Of a DNA stretch of 6,425 bases, positions 1-6,425 are shown piece by piece. How positions within the stretch are numbered: position 1 is the stretch's first letter; each line of letters starts with the position of its first letter. Source of the DNA: a virus (Duplodnaviria > Heunggongvirae > Uroviricota > Caudoviricetes); IMG/VR virus record IMGVR_UViG_2713896904_000003, positions 1-6,425 of that record; one strand, 5' to 3'. The position numbers and the translations under genes were made by a program. The notes below the pieces were generated by a model. The model worked only from the letters and a program-made list of their open reading frames with translations, was not told the DNA's origin and made no database searches.

Positions 1-521
1 GTGACAGACGGCACAACAGGCTTCGGTAATCTCAGTGCCTTACGGGCAGCACTTTCCGGTAAGGCATCCGCCAGGTCATTACGAATCAGCCACCAGCACA
101 GTTCCGGCATTGTCACAACGTGACTATCATCAAAACCGAGATCCCGACGCACAACAGACAACACCCAGCGGGCACAGTTATCCGTTGCCATTGATTCCAG
201 CCGTTCCGTGAACTGATCGCGCAGCTGGTTATCGCAGTGCCAGCACAGACGGATTGCGCCCGGAGCGTGTCGCATTGTGGTCATGTTCTCGCTGTGCCAG
301 TCGGAATGAGGCCACTGGCAGCCTTTTTCACGAAGTAACCAGCTTTCAAGACATTCCACGCCACCAGCACGACGGATCACTGCCTCATTGCGGAACACGG
401 CCCGAACGGCAGGATCATCCGCCAGCGGTTGTGATGCCGCCGGAACGGCACCACTGGCGAAAGATGAATAACGTTCTGGCTCAGGCTCCAGCAGGACACG
501 CCCCTGCATAAACAGGGGCAT
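1..521 (-). CDS. DUF968-like prophage nin-region protein, 3' end beyond window; start uncertain (ATG at 521, 509 or 557)
   Basis: Minus-strand frame is open from 623 to position 1 with no stop; my translation from ATG 521 gives MPLFMQGRVLLEPEPERYSS...RLCWHCDNQL...ELCWWLIRNDL. Absent from the ORF track, presumably because it has no stop in the window. Cys/His/Trp-rich pattern and position after a KilA-N gene recall the DUF968/YdfU family; family name is from memory. No strong SD at any candidate start. Confidence 0.55.
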   Translation of the reverse strand, partial: MPLFMQGRVLLEPEPERYSSFASGAVPAASQPLADDPAVRAVFRNEAVIRRAGGVECLESWLLREKGCQWPHSDWHSENMTTMRHAPGAIRLCWHCDNQLRDQFTERLESMATDNCARWVLSVVRRDLGFDDSHVVTMPELCWWLIRNDLADALPESAARKALRLPKPVVPSV

Positions 522-600
522 CAACTCTGAACCTGGCCTGAACAATACGATCCCCATACGCGGGGCAATTTCAGGGGTCAGTAGTGCTCTCACGGTCACC

Positions 601-1428
601 TCAATGAACGGTATCGAGCAGCTTTAACAGCTCAGGGAATCGGGATTCGAAGAAATGCGGCTGCGTCTCGCGCGGATTTGCGGGACTGGTGATGTTCTTG
701 CCGAACATGCAGCCTTTCGCCGTCAGCGACCAGAATTTTTTGATGTTGTTAATCGCAGTGCGGCTGTATCGTTCACGTTGTTCAACGATCCCCAGCTTCG
801 CCATCTGGTGATATGCCTGATTAGCTGTCAGGCGGATACCATACTGCTTCAGCAGTGCACTCAGTGACAGCGTGGGGCGGCTTGAGCCATCAGGCGCGTC
901 AGCAGAGCGCGGTGCCAGATTCGGTAAGCCAACAGCTTCCTGGAGTTTCTGACAGGCACCAAGCACTGATGAGTTAGACAGATTTAACTCCCGGCGCATA
1001 AAGTCCAGCAGAATCACGCCAGCCTGCATCTTGTCAGCAGCCTGCCCGGATAATTTTTCCGGTGTGCTGGTTACCATGTCGAAAGTACGGATCACCTTCA
1101 GATGGAATGACGGGCTGATCCACATTGCATAGGCATACACCAGTTCCTTACAGACATATGTTCCGCCATTCCGCCCTTCTATTTTACTGACAGGTTTACT
1201 ACCCAAATTTTGGGTAGTTTCATTGAATGAACCGACACCCAGATTTTGGGTATCGATCAATTCCTGAACCAGCTCAGTAATCTGTTGGCTAGAAAGAAAC
1301 TTTCCCGGCTCCTTGGTTCTGGCATTTGCACCAGATGCTACTGCTGCGCGATGCAGATCGTTCAGGCTGTAACGCCCATAAGCATCACGACGAACTTCAA
1401 TACCATCAATGACCATCAGATTATTCAT
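601..1428 (-). CDS. KilA-N domain protein (275 aa) with uncharacterised C-terminal half
   Basis: N-terminus MNNLMVIDGIEVRRDAYGRYSLNDLHRAA... with ...YVCKELVYAYAMWISPSFHLKVIRTF is a typical KilA-N pattern. I place the start at ATG 1428 (AGAGGAGAAA SD 9 nt upstream) rather than the track's 1461, which would overlap the RusA 3' end. Confidence 0.75.
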   Translation of the reverse strand: MNNLMVIDGIEVRRDAYGRYSLNDLHRAAVASGANARTKEPGKFLSSQQITELVQELIDTQNLGVGSFNETTQNLGSKPVSKIEGRNGGTYVCKELVYAYAMWISPSFHLKVIRTFDMVTSTPEKLSGQAADKMQAGVILLDFMRRELNLSNSSVLGACQKLQEAVGLPNLAPRSADAPDGSSRPTLSLSALLKQYGIRLTANQAYHQMAKLGIVEQRERYSRTAINNIKKFWSLTAKGCMFGKNITSPANPRETQPHFFESRFPELLKLLDTVH

Positions 1429-1447
1429 ACTTCGTTTCTCCTCTTGA

Positions 1448-1837
1448 TCAGGCAGCTGCACCCGCCGTTTTCTCGTACTTACTGATAGTGATCTCGACCT
1501 TCCCTTCCGGGATAACCGGTCCCCATTCCACCAGCATTCTTTTCACCTGACTGTCGTCTTCCCACACCCCCGCGTGGGTCAGGGCGTCAAACAGCGCCTT
1601 GTTATAGTTGTCCAGATCGCGGATCCTGTTATCCGGAGGAAACAACACGATCTCCACTGAAGCAGGTGCCGACGTTGGTTTCGGCAGACGACGTAACTGT
1701 TCAACTATTGCTGCGCACGCCGCGCTCTGAAATTTTCGCCCCGCCGCGCTTATCAGGCTCTTACCTGCAAACGCCCCTTTGTTGGGGTGTCGCCAGTACG
1801 TGTTCACGCTGGGCGGAAAAGGCAGGATAAGCTTCAT
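1448..1837 (-). CDS. rusA: RusA-type Holliday junction resolvase (crossover junction endodeoxyribonuclease)
   Basis: 129 aa; PFPPSVNTYWRH near the N-terminus, catalytic-type acidic motifs RDLDNYNKALFDAL and WEDDSQV; clear resemblance to E. coli RusA. ATG at 1837-1835 overlaps the upstream stop as ATGA. Confidence 0.9.
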   Translation of the reverse strand: MKLILPFPPSVNTYWRHPNKGAFAGKSLISAAGRKFQSAACAAIVEQLRRLPKPTSAPASVEIVLFPPDNRIRDLDNYNKALFDALTHAGVWEDDSQVKRMLVEWGPVIPEGKVEITISKYEKTAGAAA

Positions 1838-2160
1838 ACTTTCAAGCCCCTCTCATGTAACCAGTGAGTTGCACGCAGCCTGGCGTTTTCCTCACCGGCA
1901 AGCAGTGCGCGGATAATCCCGACCGTCTCGCTGTCGTCGTCCTTCACTGCGGTATGAAGCGTTATCCCCCGGGCCACGCCACGCTTTATTGTGATGACGC
2001 CTTTTTTCTCCAGTGCGCGAAGATGCTCCACCGCTGCATTCACCGAACGGTATCCCAGCATGGTTGCCACCTCCTGATTGGTTGGCGGGAAGCCACGTTC
2101 TTTCTGGTAAGAAATCAGCATATCCAGCACCTGCTGCTGGCATTGAGTTAACGTCGTCAT
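1834..2160 (-). CDS. LexA N-terminal DNA-binding (winged-helix) domain protein lacking the S24 peptidase domain (108 aa)
   Basis: MTTLTQCQQQVLDMLISYQKERGFPPTNQEVATMLGYRSVNAAVEHLRALEKKGVITIKRGVARGITL aligns by eye with the LexA N-terminal domain ([58 protein letters not shown]...). Start at ATG 2160 is preceded by GTGGGGG and forms a TAATG overlap with the upstream stop; the track's start at 2193 is an in-frame alternative. Confidence 0.7.
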   Translation of the reverse strand: MTTLTQCQQQVLDMLISYQKERGFPPTNQEVATMLGYRSVNAAVEHLRALEKKGVITIKRGVARGITLHTAVKDDDSETVGIIRALLAGEENARLRATHWLHERGLKV

Positions 2161-2639
2161 TAAGCCCCCACGTAATTGCCTGGCAGATACCACTCTTCAC
2201 CCGATGCCACGCACCTTTTACTTTTGCGTACACACCGCTCACGGCGCGCCAGAAAATTGTTTCGTTCTGACTGGGAGTGGCTTTCACGGAATGCCTCCAT
2301 CCACACCGTTGCAGCACGACGAAATAAACCTCTTGACTCCAGATCTTCTGCCTGCTGAATCAGGCGCAAAATCACCCGCTGATCATTAGTGCCGACGTAG
2401 CTTTTACTGGCCACACTCATATGCTTCAGCACCGGCTCAGGTGGCAACACAGCCTTGCGAGAAAAATGCCGGTGTGTTTTGCCTTCACTGCGATAAGCGA
2501 CACGTCTGCACTGGCGTAACTTACTGGTCGTATTCAGTACACGGGGACGTGGAAAGTATGCAAACGCGTTCGCAATATCACCGGTCGTACATCCAGGATT
2601 GCTTTCAATGAATTTTTGAATCTCACTCATCAGGCTCAT
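2160..2639 (-). CDS. PerC-like transcriptional regulator with an N-terminal winged-helix-like extension (159 aa)
   Basis: C-terminal RLIQQAEDLESRGLFRRAATVWMEAFRESHSQSERNNFLARRERC matches the PerC-family pattern as I recall it (AE-LE-G-aromatic-RRAA-W). N-terminal MSEIQKFIESNPGCTTGDIANAF resembles a wHTH. Start at ATG 2639 with GGGGGTG SD; the track's longer ORF to 2717 is an upstream extension inside the O-like gene. Confidence 0.55.
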   Translation of the reverse strand: MSLMSEIQKFIESNPGCTTGDIANAFAYFPRPRVLNTTSKLRQCRRVAYRSEGKTHRHFSRKAVLPPEPVLKHMSVASKSYVGTNDQRVILRLIQQAEDLESRGLFRRAATVWMEAFRESHSQSERNNFLARRERCVRKSKRCVASGEEWYLPGNYVGA

Positions 2640-2641
2640 GA

Positions 2642-3448
2642 TCACCCCCTGAATCCTGCCGGGATCTGGCTGTAGTCCACATTGTTGTAACTGGCTTTGA
2701 AGTACGGGTCTTCGCATCTGGCCGCCGATACCGCAGGAACTTCCCAGGATTCTTCGAAATGACGATCCGGACCAAAGAACGTGACAGCCTGTTTCACAAA
2801 TTGTGTGCCGCTGTTACCCATCGCAGATACCCAGCCCGCGTAGCGTTTCACACCTTCCAGCATGGTTTCGGGGTTTACCCCCTCGTTCAAACGGGCTTTC
2901 CAGGCTTTGAAGGCCGCTGATTTTGAATTGCCACCAGCACGTTTGGGATATGCCAGCCATGCCTGCTCAAACTCCGGAGAGTATTCCGGTCGGTTTGAAC
3001 GAACTCGCACAGACTCATCAGCAGATGCACCAACAGCTATTGGTTCATTGACTGGTTCAAAAGAGTGACTGGTTCTGGGTGAATCTCCTGCACTACCCCC
3101 TGGTGCAACTCCTGCACTACCTGGTGAATTTGCTGCACCAGATAGTGAATTATTTGCACTACCCCCTAGTGAATCTCCTGCACCATCAAGATGAAGAAGA
3201 TAGATATTACTTGAGTTACCTTTTTCACCTTTCCTGGTGACTTTTTTTACCAGCCCGGACTCACAGAGGGCCGCAATATGATTCATCACAGAACGTTTGC
3301 TAATCTCGCACTGATCAGCGATATGCTGATAGCTGGGCCAGCACTCGCCCTGATCGCTGGCATTATCAGCCAGCTTAATCAGAACCAGTTTTCGCAATGG
3401 ATTTCCCACTCGAATTTTCATCGCTTTAACCATCAGCTCCATACTCAT
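2642..3448 (-). CDS. Lambda O-like replication initiator: N-terminal HTH, low-complexity linker encoded by iterons, C-terminal DnaT-like domain
   Basis: N-terminus KIRVGNPLRKLVLIKLADNASDQGECWPSYQHIADQCEISKRSVMNHIAALCESGLV is a replication-initiator-type HTH. The middle GGSANNSLSGAANSPGSAGVAPGGSAGDSP is encoded by direct DNA repeats. C-terminus EFEQAWLAYPKRAGGNSKSAAFKAWKARL. GGAGGT SD 5 nt before ATG 3448; ATGA overlap with the upstream gene. Confidence 0.75.
   Translation of the reverse strand: MSMELMVKAMKIRVGNPLRKLVLIKLADNASDQGECWPSYQHIADQCEISKRSVMNHIAALCESGLVKKVTRKGEKGNSSNIYLLHLDGAGDSLGGSANNSLSGAANSPGSAGVAPGGSAGDSPRTSHSFEPVNEPIAVGASADESVRVRSNRPEYSPEFEQAWLAYPKRAGGNSKSAAFKAWKARLNEGVNPETMLEGVKRYAGWVSAMGNSGTQFVKQAVTFFGPDRHFEESWEVPAVSAARCEDPYFKASYNNVDYSQIPAGFRG
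3079..3190. repeat. Five iteron-like direct repeats (putative origin of replication inside the initiator gene), flanked by an AT-rich tract at about 3188-3250
   Basis: Units start at 3079, 3103, 3124, 3145 and 3169 with 21-24 bp spacing: GTGAATCTCCTGCACTACCCCCTG / GTGCAACTCCTGCACTACCTG / GTGAATTTGCTGCACCAGATA / GTGAATTATTTGCACTACCCCCTA / GTGAATCTCCTGCACCATCAAG. Adjacent AT-rich stretch aagatgaagaagatagatattacttgagttacctttttcacc. Confidence 0.65.
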
Positions 3449-3681
3449 GCAGCACCTCCGAGATGCTTCATGTTTTTTCCGGAGCGAAAGGCTATAAGCG
3501 GCATACTGACGCGGTAATTACGGCCCAGCGGTTCACAAATCACTTTCTGACATTCACGGTCAACCAGGCTAACACGTAGAACATGCCCTGCAGGCGTGGT
3601 GTACCACTGCCCAACTGTAGGAATTGATGTTTTTTTACGCTGAAGTAAACGGCGAATATTGAGGCTCAACGGATTAAGCAT
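3445..3681 (-). CDS. Hypothetical small protein (78 aa), translationally coupled between the 278 aa gene and the O-like initiator
   Basis: Strong SD GGAGGG 7 nt before ATG 3681; its start overlaps the upstream stop and its stop overlaps the O-like ATG (ATGA). Basic N-terminus (NIRRLLQRKKTS). No family recognised. Confidence 0.55.
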   Translation of the reverse strand: MLNPLSLNIRRLLQRKKTSIPTVGQWYTTPAGHVLRVSLVDRECQKVICEPLGRNYRVSMPLIAFRSGKNMKHLGGAA

Positions 3682-4510
3682 GACGATGCCCTCCGCTGAT
3701 ATTCAGGAGACGGTGAATATGAAAATTAGCCTTATCCACCAAACGGATACGTTCAGCCTGCAAGTTAAGAAGGGTTTCTACCAGAACCTGATGCGCCTGC
3801 GGATCCGAAAGAGTTACCTTGCGCAGAGCACGTAGTGCAGTTGTTACATAACTGAGTTTATGTAAGTCTTCATCATTCAGACGAGTGAGGGCTGGGACAG
3901 TAGCCATGATGGCAGCCTCCTTGATCGGTGAAATACTTCCACCACCGGAAACGCCAATTTCGCTGGTGGTGAACTGAACGGGGTTGGCGTAACCGGTGAT
4001 CAAGGAAACCGGCGCATCTTTCGATGCCCCCGCCCAGCCCACCATAACTTTGATGTGAGCAAATGCGGACGATAAAAAAGACGCTGGCGCGTCATATATC
4101 GCCTTGATCAATTCCAGGACGCCAATCCCGGCACCCGCTTTATAAGGTGCCTGAACAGTGTAACGTCCCGGAATGGCAGAATCAATGTGCTGGTGGTCCT
4201 TCACACTCAACAAAATCACGCCTGAATTTCCACAAAGGACTAAAGCACTCATGCGGGTAGTCTTTGCGAAGATAGATAACGCGCTGTGTTTCTGGCTCCC
4301 AACGAATAACATGAACATAAAGTCCTCTTCCGTCACGAAACCAGCGGTTAAGTTCCTGCACAACTCGCCCCCCACAGTCAGGTAAAGTTCTCTGTGGTTA
4401 CTTACAGCCAGGTGATTTGGTAATCTGCATTCATGCCGTAACAACAGGTGTTCAGCGACGCTGACCACCAGCTGTTGCGACAAACGGTTATTTGCCGTTA
4501 AACTGTTCAT
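3674..4510 (-). CDS. Hypothetical protein (278 aa), possible Rossmann-like alpha/beta core; function unknown
   Basis: Long uninterrupted ORF; ATG 4510 overlaps the CII-like stop as ATGA. Alternating hydrophobic strands and Gly-rich loops (LVLCGNSGVILLSV, YKAGAGIGVLELIKAIYD, VSLITGYANP, EIGVSGGGSISPIKEAA) suggest a nucleotide-binding-type fold. No Walker A, macro, SIR2 or nucleotidyltransferase signature that I can confirm. Confidence 0.65.
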   Translation of the reverse strand: MNSLTANNRLSQQLVVSVAEHLLLRHECRLPNHLAVSNHRELYLTVGGELCRNLTAGFVTEEDFMFMLFVGSQKHSALSIFAKTTRMSALVLCGNSGVILLSVKDHQHIDSAIPGRYTVQAPYKAGAGIGVLELIKAIYDAPASFLSSAFAHIKVMVGWAGASKDAPVSLITGYANPVQFTTSEIGVSGGGSISPIKEAAIMATVPALTRLNDEDLHKLSYVTTALRALRKVTLSDPQAHQVLVETLLNLQAERIRLVDKANFHIHRLLNISGGHRHA

Positions 4511-5070
4511 GCGTTAGTTTCTCCACAGACACAAAACGCCACGACGCCCGGAGCTGCACACTCGCGGGCGTCACTCTTTTCTGGAGCGCAAAAGATTTTG
4601 TAGACCAGTGCTGCATGCTCCTGGAGCTTCGAAATTGACAGATACAACTCATCATTAATTGCTGTCTGCTCGTGTGGCTCCACTACCCCATCTTCGATTG
4701 CCGAACGAATCTGCTTTGAGTAACTCCCGATCTGTTCGATGACTTCCAGCAGGCGCTGGTTGATATCGGCGTTCTCTACTTCCTCAATTTCAGGAAGCGA
4801 TACAAACACCCCACCAGCAGACTGTGCGACAGCATCCGCAATGTAGTGAGTGCCAGCCGCGCGCTGTAAAATCATTGCCCATCCCAGCGGGAAAATCTGA
4901 TCGCCATCTGCACGAAGGCGGTTGAATAAAGCGTTCTCTGTTACATCCAGCCACTCAGCAGCTTCAGCGTAACCCCCCGGCAACGCCGCGATAGTTTTTC
5001 TGACAGCTTTCACGTACCACTCAGGCTGTTTTTCTACTTTCCAGTGATGCTTACCCACGGTTAGCCTCAT
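4507..5070 (-). CDS. CII-like early regulatory protein (phage regulatory protein CII/CP76-like); alternative GTG start at 5058
   Basis: Sits directly after the cro-like gene. HTH-like segment GGYAEAAEWLDVTENALFNRLR followed by a helical C-terminal region; architecture resembles CP76-family CII proteins as I recall them. ATG 5070 has a weak SD; GTG 5058 is preceded by GAGG. Confidence 0.5.
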   Translation of the reverse strand: MRLTVGKHHWKVEKQPEWYVKAVRKTIAALPGGYAEAAEWLDVTENALFNRLRADGDQIFPLGWAMILQRAAGTHYIADAVAQSAGGVFVSLPEIEEVENADINQRLLEVIEQIGSYSKQIRSAIEDGVVEPHEQTAINDELYLSISKLQEHAALVYKIFCAPEKSDARECAAPGVVAFCVCGETNA

Positions 5071-5101
5071 CGTTCTGTGGTTAAAAATTGAAGGTGTTCT
5101 G

Positions 5102-5302
5102 TTAATCTTTCGGATAGATATCCGGTCTTAAGTCAGATTTCGTAATTGCACCTGACGTGCATTGCTCAAGTTTTTTAGCCAGCACAAAACTGGCTTTTTT
5201 ATAACCATTGAAAACCAGCCGTAAGTAGCCTGGTGTTGAGCCAACTTTGCCAGCCAACTCGGCCTGCTGTTCTTTGGTTAAAGAGTCCCAATACGCTTTC
5301 AT
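5102..5302 (-). CDS. Cro-like small HTH regulator (66 aa)
   Basis: MKAYWDSLTKEQQAELAGKVGSTPGYLRLVFNGYKKASFVLAKKLEQCTSGAITKSDLRPDIYPKD; GGAGGT SD 9 nt before ATG 5302; divergent from the cI-like gene. The track's 167 aa ORF is an in-frame upstream extension that would run through the operator region and the cI start. Confidence 0.7.
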   Translation of the reverse strand: MKAYWDSLTKEQQAELAGKVGSTPGYLRLVFNGYKKASFVLAKKLEQCTSGAITKSDLRPDIYPKD

Positions 5303-5392
5303 ACAATATGTACCTCCGGTATACACATTACATGATTGAGATGAACCTTCAAGATACTTGTACCTTAACGGTACAAGGGTTTTAATTTCGTT
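5303..5392. promoter_or_regulatory. Divergent OR-like operator/promoter region between the cro-like and cI-like genes
   Basis: Perfect 21 bp palindrome CTTGTACCTTAACGGTACAAG (5357-5377) and imperfect dyad ATGTACC-tcc-GGTATACA (5308-5325) share the half-site TGTACC/GGTACA. Candidate PR on the minus strand: -35 TTGAAG (plus 5347-5352), 16 bp spacer, -10 TAATGT (plus 5325-5330). Candidate PRM on the plus strand: -35 TTGTAC (5358-5363), 17 bp spacer, -10 TTTAAT (5381-5386), which would start the cI mRNA at or near ATG 5393. Confidence 0.5.
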
Positions 5393-6067
5393 ATGAAAAC
5401 AGTCCATGACATCCGGCGGTCTAACGCCAGAAAACTGAGAGATGGTGTTGGCGGGAATTCTTCCTTTGCCACCATGATTGATCGCGAGCCAACCCAGACC
5501 AGCAGGTTTATGGGAGATGGTGCAACTAAAAATATCGGTGACAGCATGGCACGGCACATCGAAAAATGTTTCGACCTGCCTGTCGGATGGCTTGATCAAG
5601 AACACCAGACAACGAACATCACAAAAAAACCTGATGTTTCAATCACTAACAAACAAATAACGTTAGTCCCTGTCATATCATGGGTACAGGCCGGAGCATG
5701 GAAAGAAGTTGGCTATTCTGAGGTTGATTTGAGCACAGCAGAAACTTATCCCTGCCCTGTACCCTGTGGCGAAATGACTTATATCTTGCGGGTGATTGGT
5801 GATTCAATGATTGATGAATACCGCCCGGGAGATATGATTTTTGTTGATCCTGAAGTACCTGCCTGCCACGGTGACGACGTTATTGCATTGATGCACGATA
5901 CAGGTGAAACCACCTTTAAAAGGTTGATAGAAGACGGAACACAACGTTATCTCAAAGCATTAAACCCAAACTGGCCAGAGCCTTACATTAAGATCAACGG
6001 TAATTGTTCCATAATTGGTACTGTGATTTTCTCAGGAAAACCAAGGAGATACCATATTAAAGCCTAA
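5393..6067 (+). CDS. CI-like prophage repressor: N-terminal HTH plus C-terminal S24 (LexA-like) autopeptidase domain
   Basis: C-terminal region ILRVIGDSMIDEYRPGDMIFVDPE...TFKRLIEDGTQRYLKALNPNWPEPYIKINGNCSIIGTVIFS parallels lambda CI (GNSM...[40 protein letters not shown]). Ala-Gly in VQAGAW matches lambda's VQAGMF cleavage site; Ser in GDSM and Lys in FKRL form the dyad. Confidence 0.85.
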   Translation: MKTVHDIRRSNARKLRDGVGGNSSFATMIDREPTQTSRFMGDGATKNIGDSMARHIEKCFDLPVGWLDQEHQTTNITKKPDVSITNKQITLVPVISWVQAGAWKEVGYSEVDLSTAETYPCPVPCGEMTYILRVIGDSMIDEYRPGDMIFVDPEVPACHGDDVIALMHDTGETTFKRLIEDGTQRYLKALNPNWPEPYIKINGNCSIIGTVIFSGKPRRYHIKA

Positions 6068-6079
6068 TCAATATTTATG

Positions 6080-6103
6080 AACCTGCTTCGGCAGGTTTTT
6101 TTA
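6080..6103 (+). terminator. Rho-independent terminator downstream of the cI-like gene
   Basis: AACCTGC-TTCG-GCAGGTT stem-loop (7 bp stem) followed directly by a run of seven T. Confidence 0.6.
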
Positions 6104-6106
6104 TAC

Positions 6107-6140
6107 TTGACAATGTACCCTTGAGATACATAATGTACCC
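6107..6140 (+). promoter_or_regulatory. PL-like promoter with duplicated operator-like motif
   Basis: TTGACA (6107-6112), 16 bp spacer, CATAAT (6129-6134). Direct repeat AATGTACCC at 6112-6120 and 6132-6140 carries the same TGTACC core as the OR-region dyads. Confidence 0.45.
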
Positions 6141-6243
6141 AGATGAAACAGCGAACAGGCAGGATGCCCACGAAGTAGCCGCCCGGGGCATATGAAGACC
6201 GGGATGATTCGTTAGCAACAAAAAAGCGCCGTACCGGACACTT

Positions 6244-6256
6244 CGCTCTTTAACAA
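6244..6256 (+). promoter_or_regulatory. boxA-like element (possible nut-type antitermination site) in the leader of the leftward transcript
   Basis: CGCTCTTTAACAA matches the rrn boxA consensus (TGCTCTTTAACAA) and the CGCTCTT core of lambda nutL/nutR boxA as I recall them. A possible 5 bp stem hairpin CAAGT-aattgata-ACTTG follows at 6271-6288, though its loop is larger than a canonical boxB. Confidence 0.4.
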
Positions 6257-6301
6257 TCTGATCCCCATCAACAAGTAATTGATAACTTGAGGAAGTGTGA
6301 A

Positions 6302-6391
6302 ATGCACAAAACAGAACCAAAAATCGTCGCGCCAGGCTACACTGAACCGCCCCGGGAATCCTGGAGACTAAACTTCCTGAGAAAGAGGTAA
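6302..6391 (+). pseudogene. Gene start truncated by IS insertion; only about 13 native codons (MHKTEPKIVAPGY) remain
   Basis: GAGGAAG SD 6 nt before ATG 6302, about 170 nt downstream of the PL-like promoter. The reading frame runs into the putative IS end at about 6343 and stops at 6389-6391 inside IS-derived sequence. Confidence 0.35.
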
Positions 6392-6425
6392 ACAGGATGA
6401 CTAAAAATACTCGTTTTTCCCCCGA
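6343..6425 (+). mobile_element. Left end of an IS3-family insertion sequence (IS629/IS1203-like), continuing beyond the window
   Basis: TGAACCGCCCCGGGAATCCTGGAGACTAAAC... followed by AGAGGTAAACAGG ATG ACT AAA AAT ACT CGT TTT TCC CCC matches, from memory, the IS629-type left inverted repeat and the orfA start MTKNTRFSPE. Exact boundary is uncertain by a few bp. Confidence 0.55.
6396..6425 (+). CDS. IS3-family transposase OrfA, 5' fragment (MTKNTRFSP...)
   Basis: ATG 6396 with AGAGG SD; the first nine codons match the recalled OrfA N-terminus of IS629-like elements; runs off the window end. Confidence 0.5.

Follow-up and report, generated by a model that had tools for sequence, protein, structure and literature searches.

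The stretch of DNA analysed here (the window, 6,425 nt; positions 1 to 6,425 of IMG/VR record IMGVR_UViG_2713896904_000003) covers the early-right region of a lambdoid prophage, with transcription on the minus strand. It contains a gene for a 268-residue helix-turn-helix protein that carries, within its own coding sequence, an array of five short repeats (iterons). Our analysis suggests that this array is likely to be the iteron part of a phage replication origin, lying inside the initiator gene in the manner of the lambda origin (ori-lambda). The gene, the array and the flanking elements are arranged as follows, with iterons numbered in gene order.

2642–3448, minus strand: initiator gene encoding the 268-residue helix-turn-helix protein (open reading frame (ORF) list, Pfam, PHROG).
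3194–3448, minus strand: coding region of the winged helix-turn-helix (wHTH) DNA-binding domain (AlphaFold2 (AF2), Foldseek, helix–iteron pairing).
3185–3249, N-terminal-coding side of the array: AT-rich tract, encoding VKKVTRKGEKGNSSNIYLLHLD, the wing of the wHTH domain.
3167–3185 (core 3169–3183), minus strand: iteron 1.
3143–3161 (core 3145–3159), minus strand: iteron 2.
3122–3140 (core 3124–3138), minus strand: iteron 3.
3101–3119 (core 3103–3117), minus strand: iteron 4, a perfect dyad (GTGCA-N5-TGCAC).
3077–3095 (core 3079–3093), minus strand: iteron 5, directly abutting the junction element.
3040–3078, minus strand: junction element, CCAGAACCAGTCACTCTTTTGAACCAGTCAATGAACC on the gene strand, encoding PRTSHSFEPVNEP.
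2999–3223, minus strand: zone of abnormal codon usage (codons 76–150), in which GC content at third codon positions (GC3) is 0.07–0.27 compared with 0.5–0.67 in the flanks.
2645–3001, minus strand: coding region of the C-terminal domain (PHROG matches, domain swaps).

The array consists of five copies of a 15-bp imperfect palindrome, GTGMA-N5-TKCAC (19 bp with its flanks), at 3079–3183, with start-to-start spacings of 24, 21, 21 and 24 bp. On the plus strand, the copies read GTGAATCTCCTGCAC (3079–3093), GTGCAACTCCTGCAC (3103–3117), GTGAATTTGCTGCAC (3124–3138), GTGAATTATTTGCAC (3145–3159) and again GTGAATCTCCTGCAC (3169–3183). Each is an imperfect dyad of GTGMA and its complement TKCAC, with the two centres 10 bp apart. 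These are the only 5 exact matches on either strand of the 6,425 bp; with up to one mismatch there are 7 matches compared with 1.05 expected, a count that 0 of 200 shuffles reached. An earlier note on this DNA, made from the sequence alone, had described five direct repeats of 21–24 bp inside an initiator gene, and the motif scan bears this out. The half-sites it gave were also right, but the gap in its consensus was not: the sequence is GTGAA-N5-TGCAC (that is, GTGAAT-N4-TGCAC) rather than GTGAAT-N5. All five copies lie in one reading frame and encode residues 89–124 of 268 (GAGDSLGGSANNSLSGAANSPGSAGVAPGGSAGDSP), between the wHTH domain and the C-terminal domain. As the earlier note had said, this is a low-complexity, Gly/Ser/Ala-rich linker, and it falls within a segment predicted to be disordered. 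The low-GC3 zone at 2999–3223 is the probable full extent of DNA-level (origin) constraint. GC3 stays at 0.13 for around 15 codons past the junction (2999–3040, minus strand; PIAVGASADESVRVR), a stretch that also holds a lone GTGCA half-site near 3026–3030.

To place the array in a wider context, we compared 80 homologous loci from bacterial contigs (one genome per species) and 120 loci from viral contigs, with about 155 distinct related loci covered. The motif occurs 3–7 times inside the homologous gene in 44 genomic loci spread over many gammaproteobacterial genera (199 copies in total), including those of Kosakonia, Pluralibacter, Enterobacter, Lelliottia, Pseudomonas, Vreelandella, Zymobacter, Marinobacter, Marinomonas, Shewanella, Parashewanella, Aeromonas and others. 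In the listed genomic loci, every copy is in the gene and none lies elsewhere in the approximately 6.5 kb. A further 58 distinct viral loci have 3–7 copies each (mode, 5), with only 3 stray matches in 594 kb. The 199 copies yield an extended consensus, the 19-bp dyad T-R-GTGMA-N5-TKCAC-Y-A. The earlier note had raised the questions of whether orthologous genes lack the repeats, whether copy number varies and whether the spacing is phased with the DNA helix. The motif is present in both the genomic and the viral set; near-identical orthologues encode proteins of 242–302 residues with 1 to about 10 repeats, and phage cdtI has 8 through an insertion of exactly 66 bp. Neighbouring copies in the 44 genomic loci are 21–24 bp apart, or about two helical turns, in 145 of 155 cases.

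These comparisons indicate that what repeats is a DNA element, not a peptide. Two reading frames are used (167 versus 32 of the 199 copies). In Pseudomonas and Aeromonas, successive spacings are 23, 22, 21 and 24 bp, and one iteron is therefore translated as VQEIHQ rather than GSAxxSP. Altogether, the 199 copies encode 83 distinct hexapeptides, even though all copies share, by definition, the ten specified bases, and conservation is strong in the adjoining flanks as well. Half-site variants exchange one amino acid for another (GCA/GAA gives Ala/Glu, and TCA/GCA gives Ser/Ala), and in the spacer the third codon positions are fixed whereas the first and second vary. Across the family, GC3 in the array is 0.24–0.34 whatever the GC content of the host. 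The two frames, the diversity of hexapeptides, the varying copy number and the drop in GC3 together indicate that the encoded peptide is a passenger of a constraint acting on the DNA.

Where the recognition helix of a family member differs, so do the dyad repeats found at this position in its gene. The pairs fall into the following classes.

Helix x[KR]R[ST][VA][MIV]x: iteron GTGMA-N5-TKCAC.
Helix SKRS[VA]MR: iteron GTGAC-N5-GTCAC.
Helix xRSTVKx: iteron GGGGC-N7-GCCCC.
Helix DRSTVR[KR]: iteron TGTAGGC...AGCAC / GCCTACA.
Helix CS[KR][ST]AV[RK]x: iteron [AG]TGCC...GGCA.

Across 155 distinct origin regions, the five helix classes correspond one-to-one with iteron type, with 0 cross-class exceptions and 5 regions unclassified. 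A single N-to-R change in the helix pairs with a change from GTGCA to GTGAC. This covariation is the strongest available support for binding of these sites by the protein's own N-terminal domain, and we predict with high confidence that the repeats are the cognate sites of that domain. Binding by a dimer would fit the dyad symmetry, with half-sites one turn apart.

The protein itself belongs to a recognized family of replication proteins. It comprises an N-terminal wHTH domain (residues 1–85), a disordered linker (about 88–153) and a helical C-terminal domain (about 155–268). Its matches to Pfam HTH_36 (PF13730; E=1.7e-11, 44.1 bits compared with a cutoff of 25) and to PHROG 270, 'replication initiation protein' (E=2.8e-87 over residues 3–267), place it above threshold for both; a DnaD_N match is sub-threshold. 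In the AF2 model, the N-terminal domain (predicted local distance difference test score (pLDDT) 77–91) has helices at 17–29, 40–47 and 51–64 and strands at 67–73 and 79–85, with ISKRSVMNH (about residues 48–56) as the recognition helix and residues 67–85 as the wing; residues 91–153 are predicted to be disordered. Foldseek searches with this N-domain model returned generic winged-helix folds only, including DnaD-N 2v79 (E about 0.01–0.1), and matches to PDB sequences were rejected as spurious low-complexity hits. The initiator had no match to Pfam Phage_rep_O (PF04492) at E≤0.01, and BLASTP against lambda O gave only a trivial 8/22 match (E=0.022), so that the two proteins are not detectably homologous; the label 'O-like' in the earlier note holds by analogy only. 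The gene shares 95–97% nucleotide identity with those of SfV (orf39), mEp460, cdtI, Stx2c and Stx2a_WGPS2, annotated as 'replication protein' or 'replication protein O', and an identical protein is on record from Escherichia albertii (WP_059259756.1), which makes the window probably a prophage of that species. The 90% protein cluster that contains the initiator has a RusA protein as its representative, apparently because chimeric HTH_36–RusA fusion calls (for example, P0049–P0052) bridge the two families.

Immediately past the last iteron lies the junction element, the core of which is two GAAYCAGTCA decamers 17 bp apart (3066–3075 and 3049–3058), with a third, partial copy at 3037–3046. The element was found in 79 of 81 loci, in 77 of these with no more than 3 mismatches over 26 nt, from hosts of 40–64% GC. 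It occurs in all five specificity classes and together with every type of C-terminal domain, and in all 79 loci the last iteron ends 1–2 nt before AGAACC. In the 120 viral contigs, the element was always inside a member of the initiator family wherever the upstream gene was readable. Its decamers are the best-conserved parts and the spacer between them is the most variable. Several codons are frozen (Arg AGA in 73 of 73, Ser AGT in 77 of 77 and Ser TCT in 71 of 71), and codon entropy is 0.19 bits compared with 1.28 bits at invariant residues of the N-terminal domain (p=1e-5). The element is a local GC minimum (0.39–0.45) in low-, mid- and high-GC hosts alike, and its family-wide GC3 is 0.24–0.30 whatever the host GC. 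Single-stranded RNA or DNA hairpins were absent from it (z = -0.13 and +0.73), inspection by eye gave no convincing match to an IHF or Fis consensus, and full-text searches of the searchable literature returned no relevant mention of its sequence or peptide. The element dealt with in the Pf-5 paper is a different one. Just past the junction, a 12-bp unit, GAACCAGTCAAW (peptide EPVK/EPVN; 3037–3075, minus strand), repeats the junction decamer; it is present in 1–3 copies among 95%-identical phages, and the window has one fewer than SfV, cdtI and mEp460.

The opposite flank of the array is occupied by the AT-rich tract at 3185–3249, which GC and stability scans place, as the earlier note had it, on the N-terminal-coding side of the iterons. 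Its GC content is 0.33–0.35 compared with 0.50 for the window, and, by nearest-neighbour energy, the second least stable 40-mer and the second least stable 60-mer of the window both fall in it; per 40-mer, the junction is much more stable (about -44 kcal/mol for the tract versus -52.5 for the junction). Low third-position GC is confined to its proximal part (about 3185–3223). In relatives, the tract is neither conserved in sequence nor consistently unstable and is lineage-specific: its instability percentile is 0.08–0.45 in enteric relatives and has a median of 0.046 in GC-rich hosts, compared with 0.05–0.085 and a median of 0.013, respectively, for the junction. Inside the tract, the antisense strand has a weak terminator-like hairpin with a T-run (3225–3240, plus strand); in this region, such sites are no commoner than expected by chance.

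These two flanks bear on where the DNA would open. The earlier note had taken the position of the AT-rich tract as the reverse of lambda. The window's strongest AT tract does lie on the N-terminal side, but the tract is lineage-specific and the conserved low-GC junction lies on the C-terminal side. We regard reversed polarity as unproven because the tract is inconsistent in relatives and encodes a structured, Lys/Asn-rich wing. Opening at the N-side tract, with the junction conserved for another reason, is in our view unlikely, although it is the alternative that survives best. The tract directly abuts iteron 1 and is among the least stable segments of the window, GC3 is depressed in its proximal 40 bp or so, and family-wide GC3 in the wing is slightly below that in the rest of the N-terminal domain (0.67 versus 0.77 in GC-rich hosts; p=4e-10). 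Set against this are its unconserved sequence and its instability ranks, which in GC-rich hosts (about 0.05) trail those of the junction (0.013), and much of its AT content follows from the Lys, Asn, Ile and Tyr codons of the structured wing. A lambda-like polarity is likelier than a reversed one.

What the junction does is a separate matter, on which we offer only a tentative proposal. It may be an undescribed origin-core element, common to all specificity classes of the family across gammaproteobacterial phages, where the duplex is opened or the helicase loaded by a conserved factor, be it a protein of the host or the initiator's invariant N-terminal 48 residues; the family may likewise be a natural recognition code relating helix residues to half-site bases. 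A somewhat weaker case can be made that the junction is kept for a reason other than opening, as a protein motif that binds a host factor (RTSHSFEPV), a recombination joint between modules or an RNA signal, for example a frameshift site, and we think this doubtful. The site is the exact boundary at which N- and C-terminal modules are exchanged, the encoded peptide is conserved, and a -1 shift at CUC UUU UGA would end translation. However, the element keeps the same six-fold degenerate codons in more than 70 loci whose hosts have 40–64% GC, which a constraint on the peptide cannot explain, and a passive joint would drift at synonymous sites. An RNA signal is at odds with the lack of RNA or DNA structure (z about 0), and a programmed -1 frameshift was rejected because no part of the element varies more than the U-run, where only 27 of 77 loci have Phe.

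Beyond the junction, residues 138–268 match PHROG families annotated as 'replication protein', 'DnaD-like helicase loader' and 'primosomal protein'; the AF2 model of the C-terminal domain (pLDDT 62–77) was too uncertain for a Foldseek search by itself. In relatives, this domain changes together with the downstream gene, which is lambda-P-like in Shewanella, DnaC/IstB-like with or without DnaB in Pseudomonas and Marinobacter, and DnaB in Kosakonia. The N-terminal domain, iterons and junction move as a unit, and the C-terminal domain is exchanged along with its loader or helicase partner. It is presumably a swappable module that recruits a helicase or helicase loader, and we infer that the version in the window contacts DnaC/DnaB-type machinery. 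Host DnaB–DnaC is the likely partner because neither a loader nor a helicase gene of the phage lies in the window.

The existence of the repeats, the constraint on their DNA, their covariation with the recognition helix and the lambda-like architecture are direct observations; from them we infer binding, unwinding, helicase recruitment and origin activity, which could proceed as follows. Dimers of the N-terminal wHTH domain would bind each 19-bp dyad, with half-sites one helical turn apart and neighbouring sites about two turns (21–24 bp) apart. With five dimers in place, the nucleoprotein structure would resemble the O-some and put strain on the DNA to either side. A flank would then open, and the constant companion of the iterons is the unstructured 38-bp junction towards the C-terminal-coding end; the very AT-rich N-side tract may melt too in this lineage. 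The C-terminal domain would next recruit a DnaB-type helicase, probably host DnaB–DnaC, and transcription of the early-right operon would pass through the site, as at ori-lambda.

The reading of the array as an ori-lambda-like origin is well supported because the repeats are read in two frames, encode many hexapeptides, vary in number and have half-sites that pair with the recognition helix. The architecture is also of the lambda type, with five 19-bp dyads, a spacing of about two turns and an array placed between two domains. Of the earlier note's proposal of an ori-lambda-like origin in an O-like gene, the architecture, repeats and covariation favour the origin and the kinship with O falls away. 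Several observations weigh against this reading. DnaA boxes are not enriched (TTWTNCACA with up to one mismatch, 11 matches compared with 12.2 expected in the window); no exact box occurs in the window, and one match with a single mismatch lies by the array (3221–3229). The junction is only moderately AT-rich (58% A+T; 16th–27th percentile of instability in the window) and, with its two conserved decamers, resembles a sequence-specific site more closely than it does a classical unwinding element. Genes resembling P, dnaC or dnaB are absent from the 6,425-nt window, and there is no experimental report of binding or origin activity for this family in annotated records or in the searchable literature, outside which the 2002 SfV genome paper falls.

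Plasmid iterons serve in control as well as in replication, which raises the alternative that the initiator-bound sites act in autoregulation or copy control (titration, handcuffing) and that the phage genome has its true origin in another place. Such a role would also be in keeping with the lack of a classical, strongly AT-rich unwinding element conserved beside the array. We nevertheless consider it improbable, as the geometry of the sites and their position between the N- and C-terminal domains mirror ori-lambda, the array is always accompanied by the invariant junction, and a fixed unit of N-terminal domain, iterons and junction combined with an exchanged C-terminal domain and partner is what would be expected of a cassette of origin and origin-binding domain. 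Least credible of all is a slippage-prone, low-complexity coding repeat that encodes a flexible Gly/Ser/Ala linker and has no DNA function: although the five copies in the window are all read in the same frame to give a [GS]-A-x-x-S-[LP]-x peptide repeat, the number of copies varies in the way slippage would produce and the segment is predicted to be disordered, this explanation was rejected on the second frame in relatives (VQEIH, at 22- and 23-bp spacings) and the diversity of peptides, and it also runs counter to the fixed third codon positions in the spacer and the change of motif along with the recognition helix.

The remaining features of the window place the initiator gene within an early-right gene set.

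5393–6067, plus strand: cI-like S24 repressor gene.
4507–5070, in the minus-strand early-right set: cII/CP76-like gene.
3674–4510, in the minus-strand early-right set: Ash-domain antirepressor region.
3445–3681: small ORF between the antirepressor region and the initiator gene.

Genes for a PerC-like protein, a protein with a LexA DNA-binding domain, RusA and a KilA-N protein are also present. As listed, the PerC-like ORF (2160–2717, minus strand) overlaps the 3' end of the initiator gene by 76 nt; its real start is probably the ATG right after the initiator stop codon, because PHROG matches begin at residues 23–27. Two matches at Rfam gathering level lie inside the 278-residue Ash ORF, one to C4 antisense RNA (RF01695; 82 bits; 3962–4049, minus strand) and one to the Hfq-binding RNA isrK (RF01394; 64 bits; 4074–4150, minus strand). 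They suggest an antirepressor unit of the P1/P7 type controlled by c4/isrK, and that the N-terminal part of the Ash ORF (3674–4510) is over-called. The Rfam scan gave no match at the initiator and array locus, no sigma-70-like promoter site was found in or near the array (2600–3700), and the two terminator-like hairpins found equal the chance expectation.

Few prophage replication modules are as common in Escherichia, Shigella and Salmonella as this cassette, of which a single 90% cluster contains 2852 sequences. The cassette is also found widely in Klebsiella, Pseudomonas, Vibrio, Shewanella and Aeromonas and covers the Eru6 type of Shiga-toxin phages, whose replication the literature calls unknown; the amount of toxin produced depends on phage replication. 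A located origin would provide a defined fragment for marker-frequency analysis of induction, and the five natural helix–iteron pairs lend themselves to simple specificity-swap experiments. The junction is a concrete candidate for the least-understood step of lambda-type origins, namely where and how the duplex opens.

The window module corresponds to the uncharacterized Eru6 replication region of Shiga-toxin phages. The initiator gene shares 95.6% nucleotide identity with that of Stx2a_WGPS2 (AP012537, 8904–9722), and the order cI, cro, cII, Rha/Ash antirepressor, small ORF and HTH protein is the same. Eru regions have been classified by gene content only, and the study that did so reported that nothing was known of Eru phage replication; the word 'iteron' occurs in it 0 times and no origin is mentioned (Fagerlund et al. 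2022, PMC8951638). A further likeness is to L17 of phiP27, which has the same C-terminal domain (74% identity) and in which an N-terminal winged helix is again followed by in-gene repeats, here five copies of TGAMCCKTCAGAWTCTGA (locus 2341–2460). L17 differs in its N-terminal domain and repeats, lacks the junction and has dnaC-like and helicase genes of its own downstream; its repeats are probably another in-gene origin. To our knowledge, none of the phages in the sampled tblastn tables has an experimentally mapped origin.

Iteron origins of theta plasmids (RK2, R6K, pPS10, F and P1) offer a parallel in their repeated sites for a winged-helix Rep protein beside a region of DNA opening. Plasmid iterons are usually intergenic, direct-repeat monomer sites accompanied by DnaA boxes, whereas the sites described here are dyads inside coding sequence with no enrichment of DnaA boxes. 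Repeats within the DNA unwinding element that are sequence-specific, and not merely AT-rich, are known for plasmid origins (PMC4081077).

The closest architectural parallel is ori-lambda itself, in-gene iteron origins being textbook knowledge for lambda and its relatives. As in lambda and the related origins of 434, 21, 82, phi80, P22 (gene 18) and phage L (gene 18), dyad repeats of about 19 bp recur at roughly two-turn spacing within the initiator gene, between an N-terminal origin-binding domain and a C-terminal partner-binding domain, and are read in whatever frame results. The N-terminal domain and iterons form a specificity cassette in both groups, iteron number differs among relatives, and the pattern of protein–iteron covariation is known for the lambdoid O proteins of lambda, P22 and L too. 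On record, lambda has four 18-bp dyad iterons in codons 117–144 of the 299 of O, spaced 20, 24 and 23 bp apart and lying in three reading frames, with a 45-bp AT-rich region next to them on the C-terminal side (PMC7466680). By contrast, the initiator in the window has no detectable similarity to O or Phage_rep_O, the iteron sequence differs and no P-like gene follows. The last iteron is adjoined by an invariant, sequence-specific 38-bp element with two decamers instead of a 40-bp tract rich in A-runs. This C-side element is conserved and a local GC minimum (0.39–0.45) but not strongly AT-rich, and the strongest AT-rich tract lies on the opposite, N-terminal-coding side. Thus, the family follows the same logic as lambda, but with an unrelated protein family and an extra invariant, sequence-specific element.

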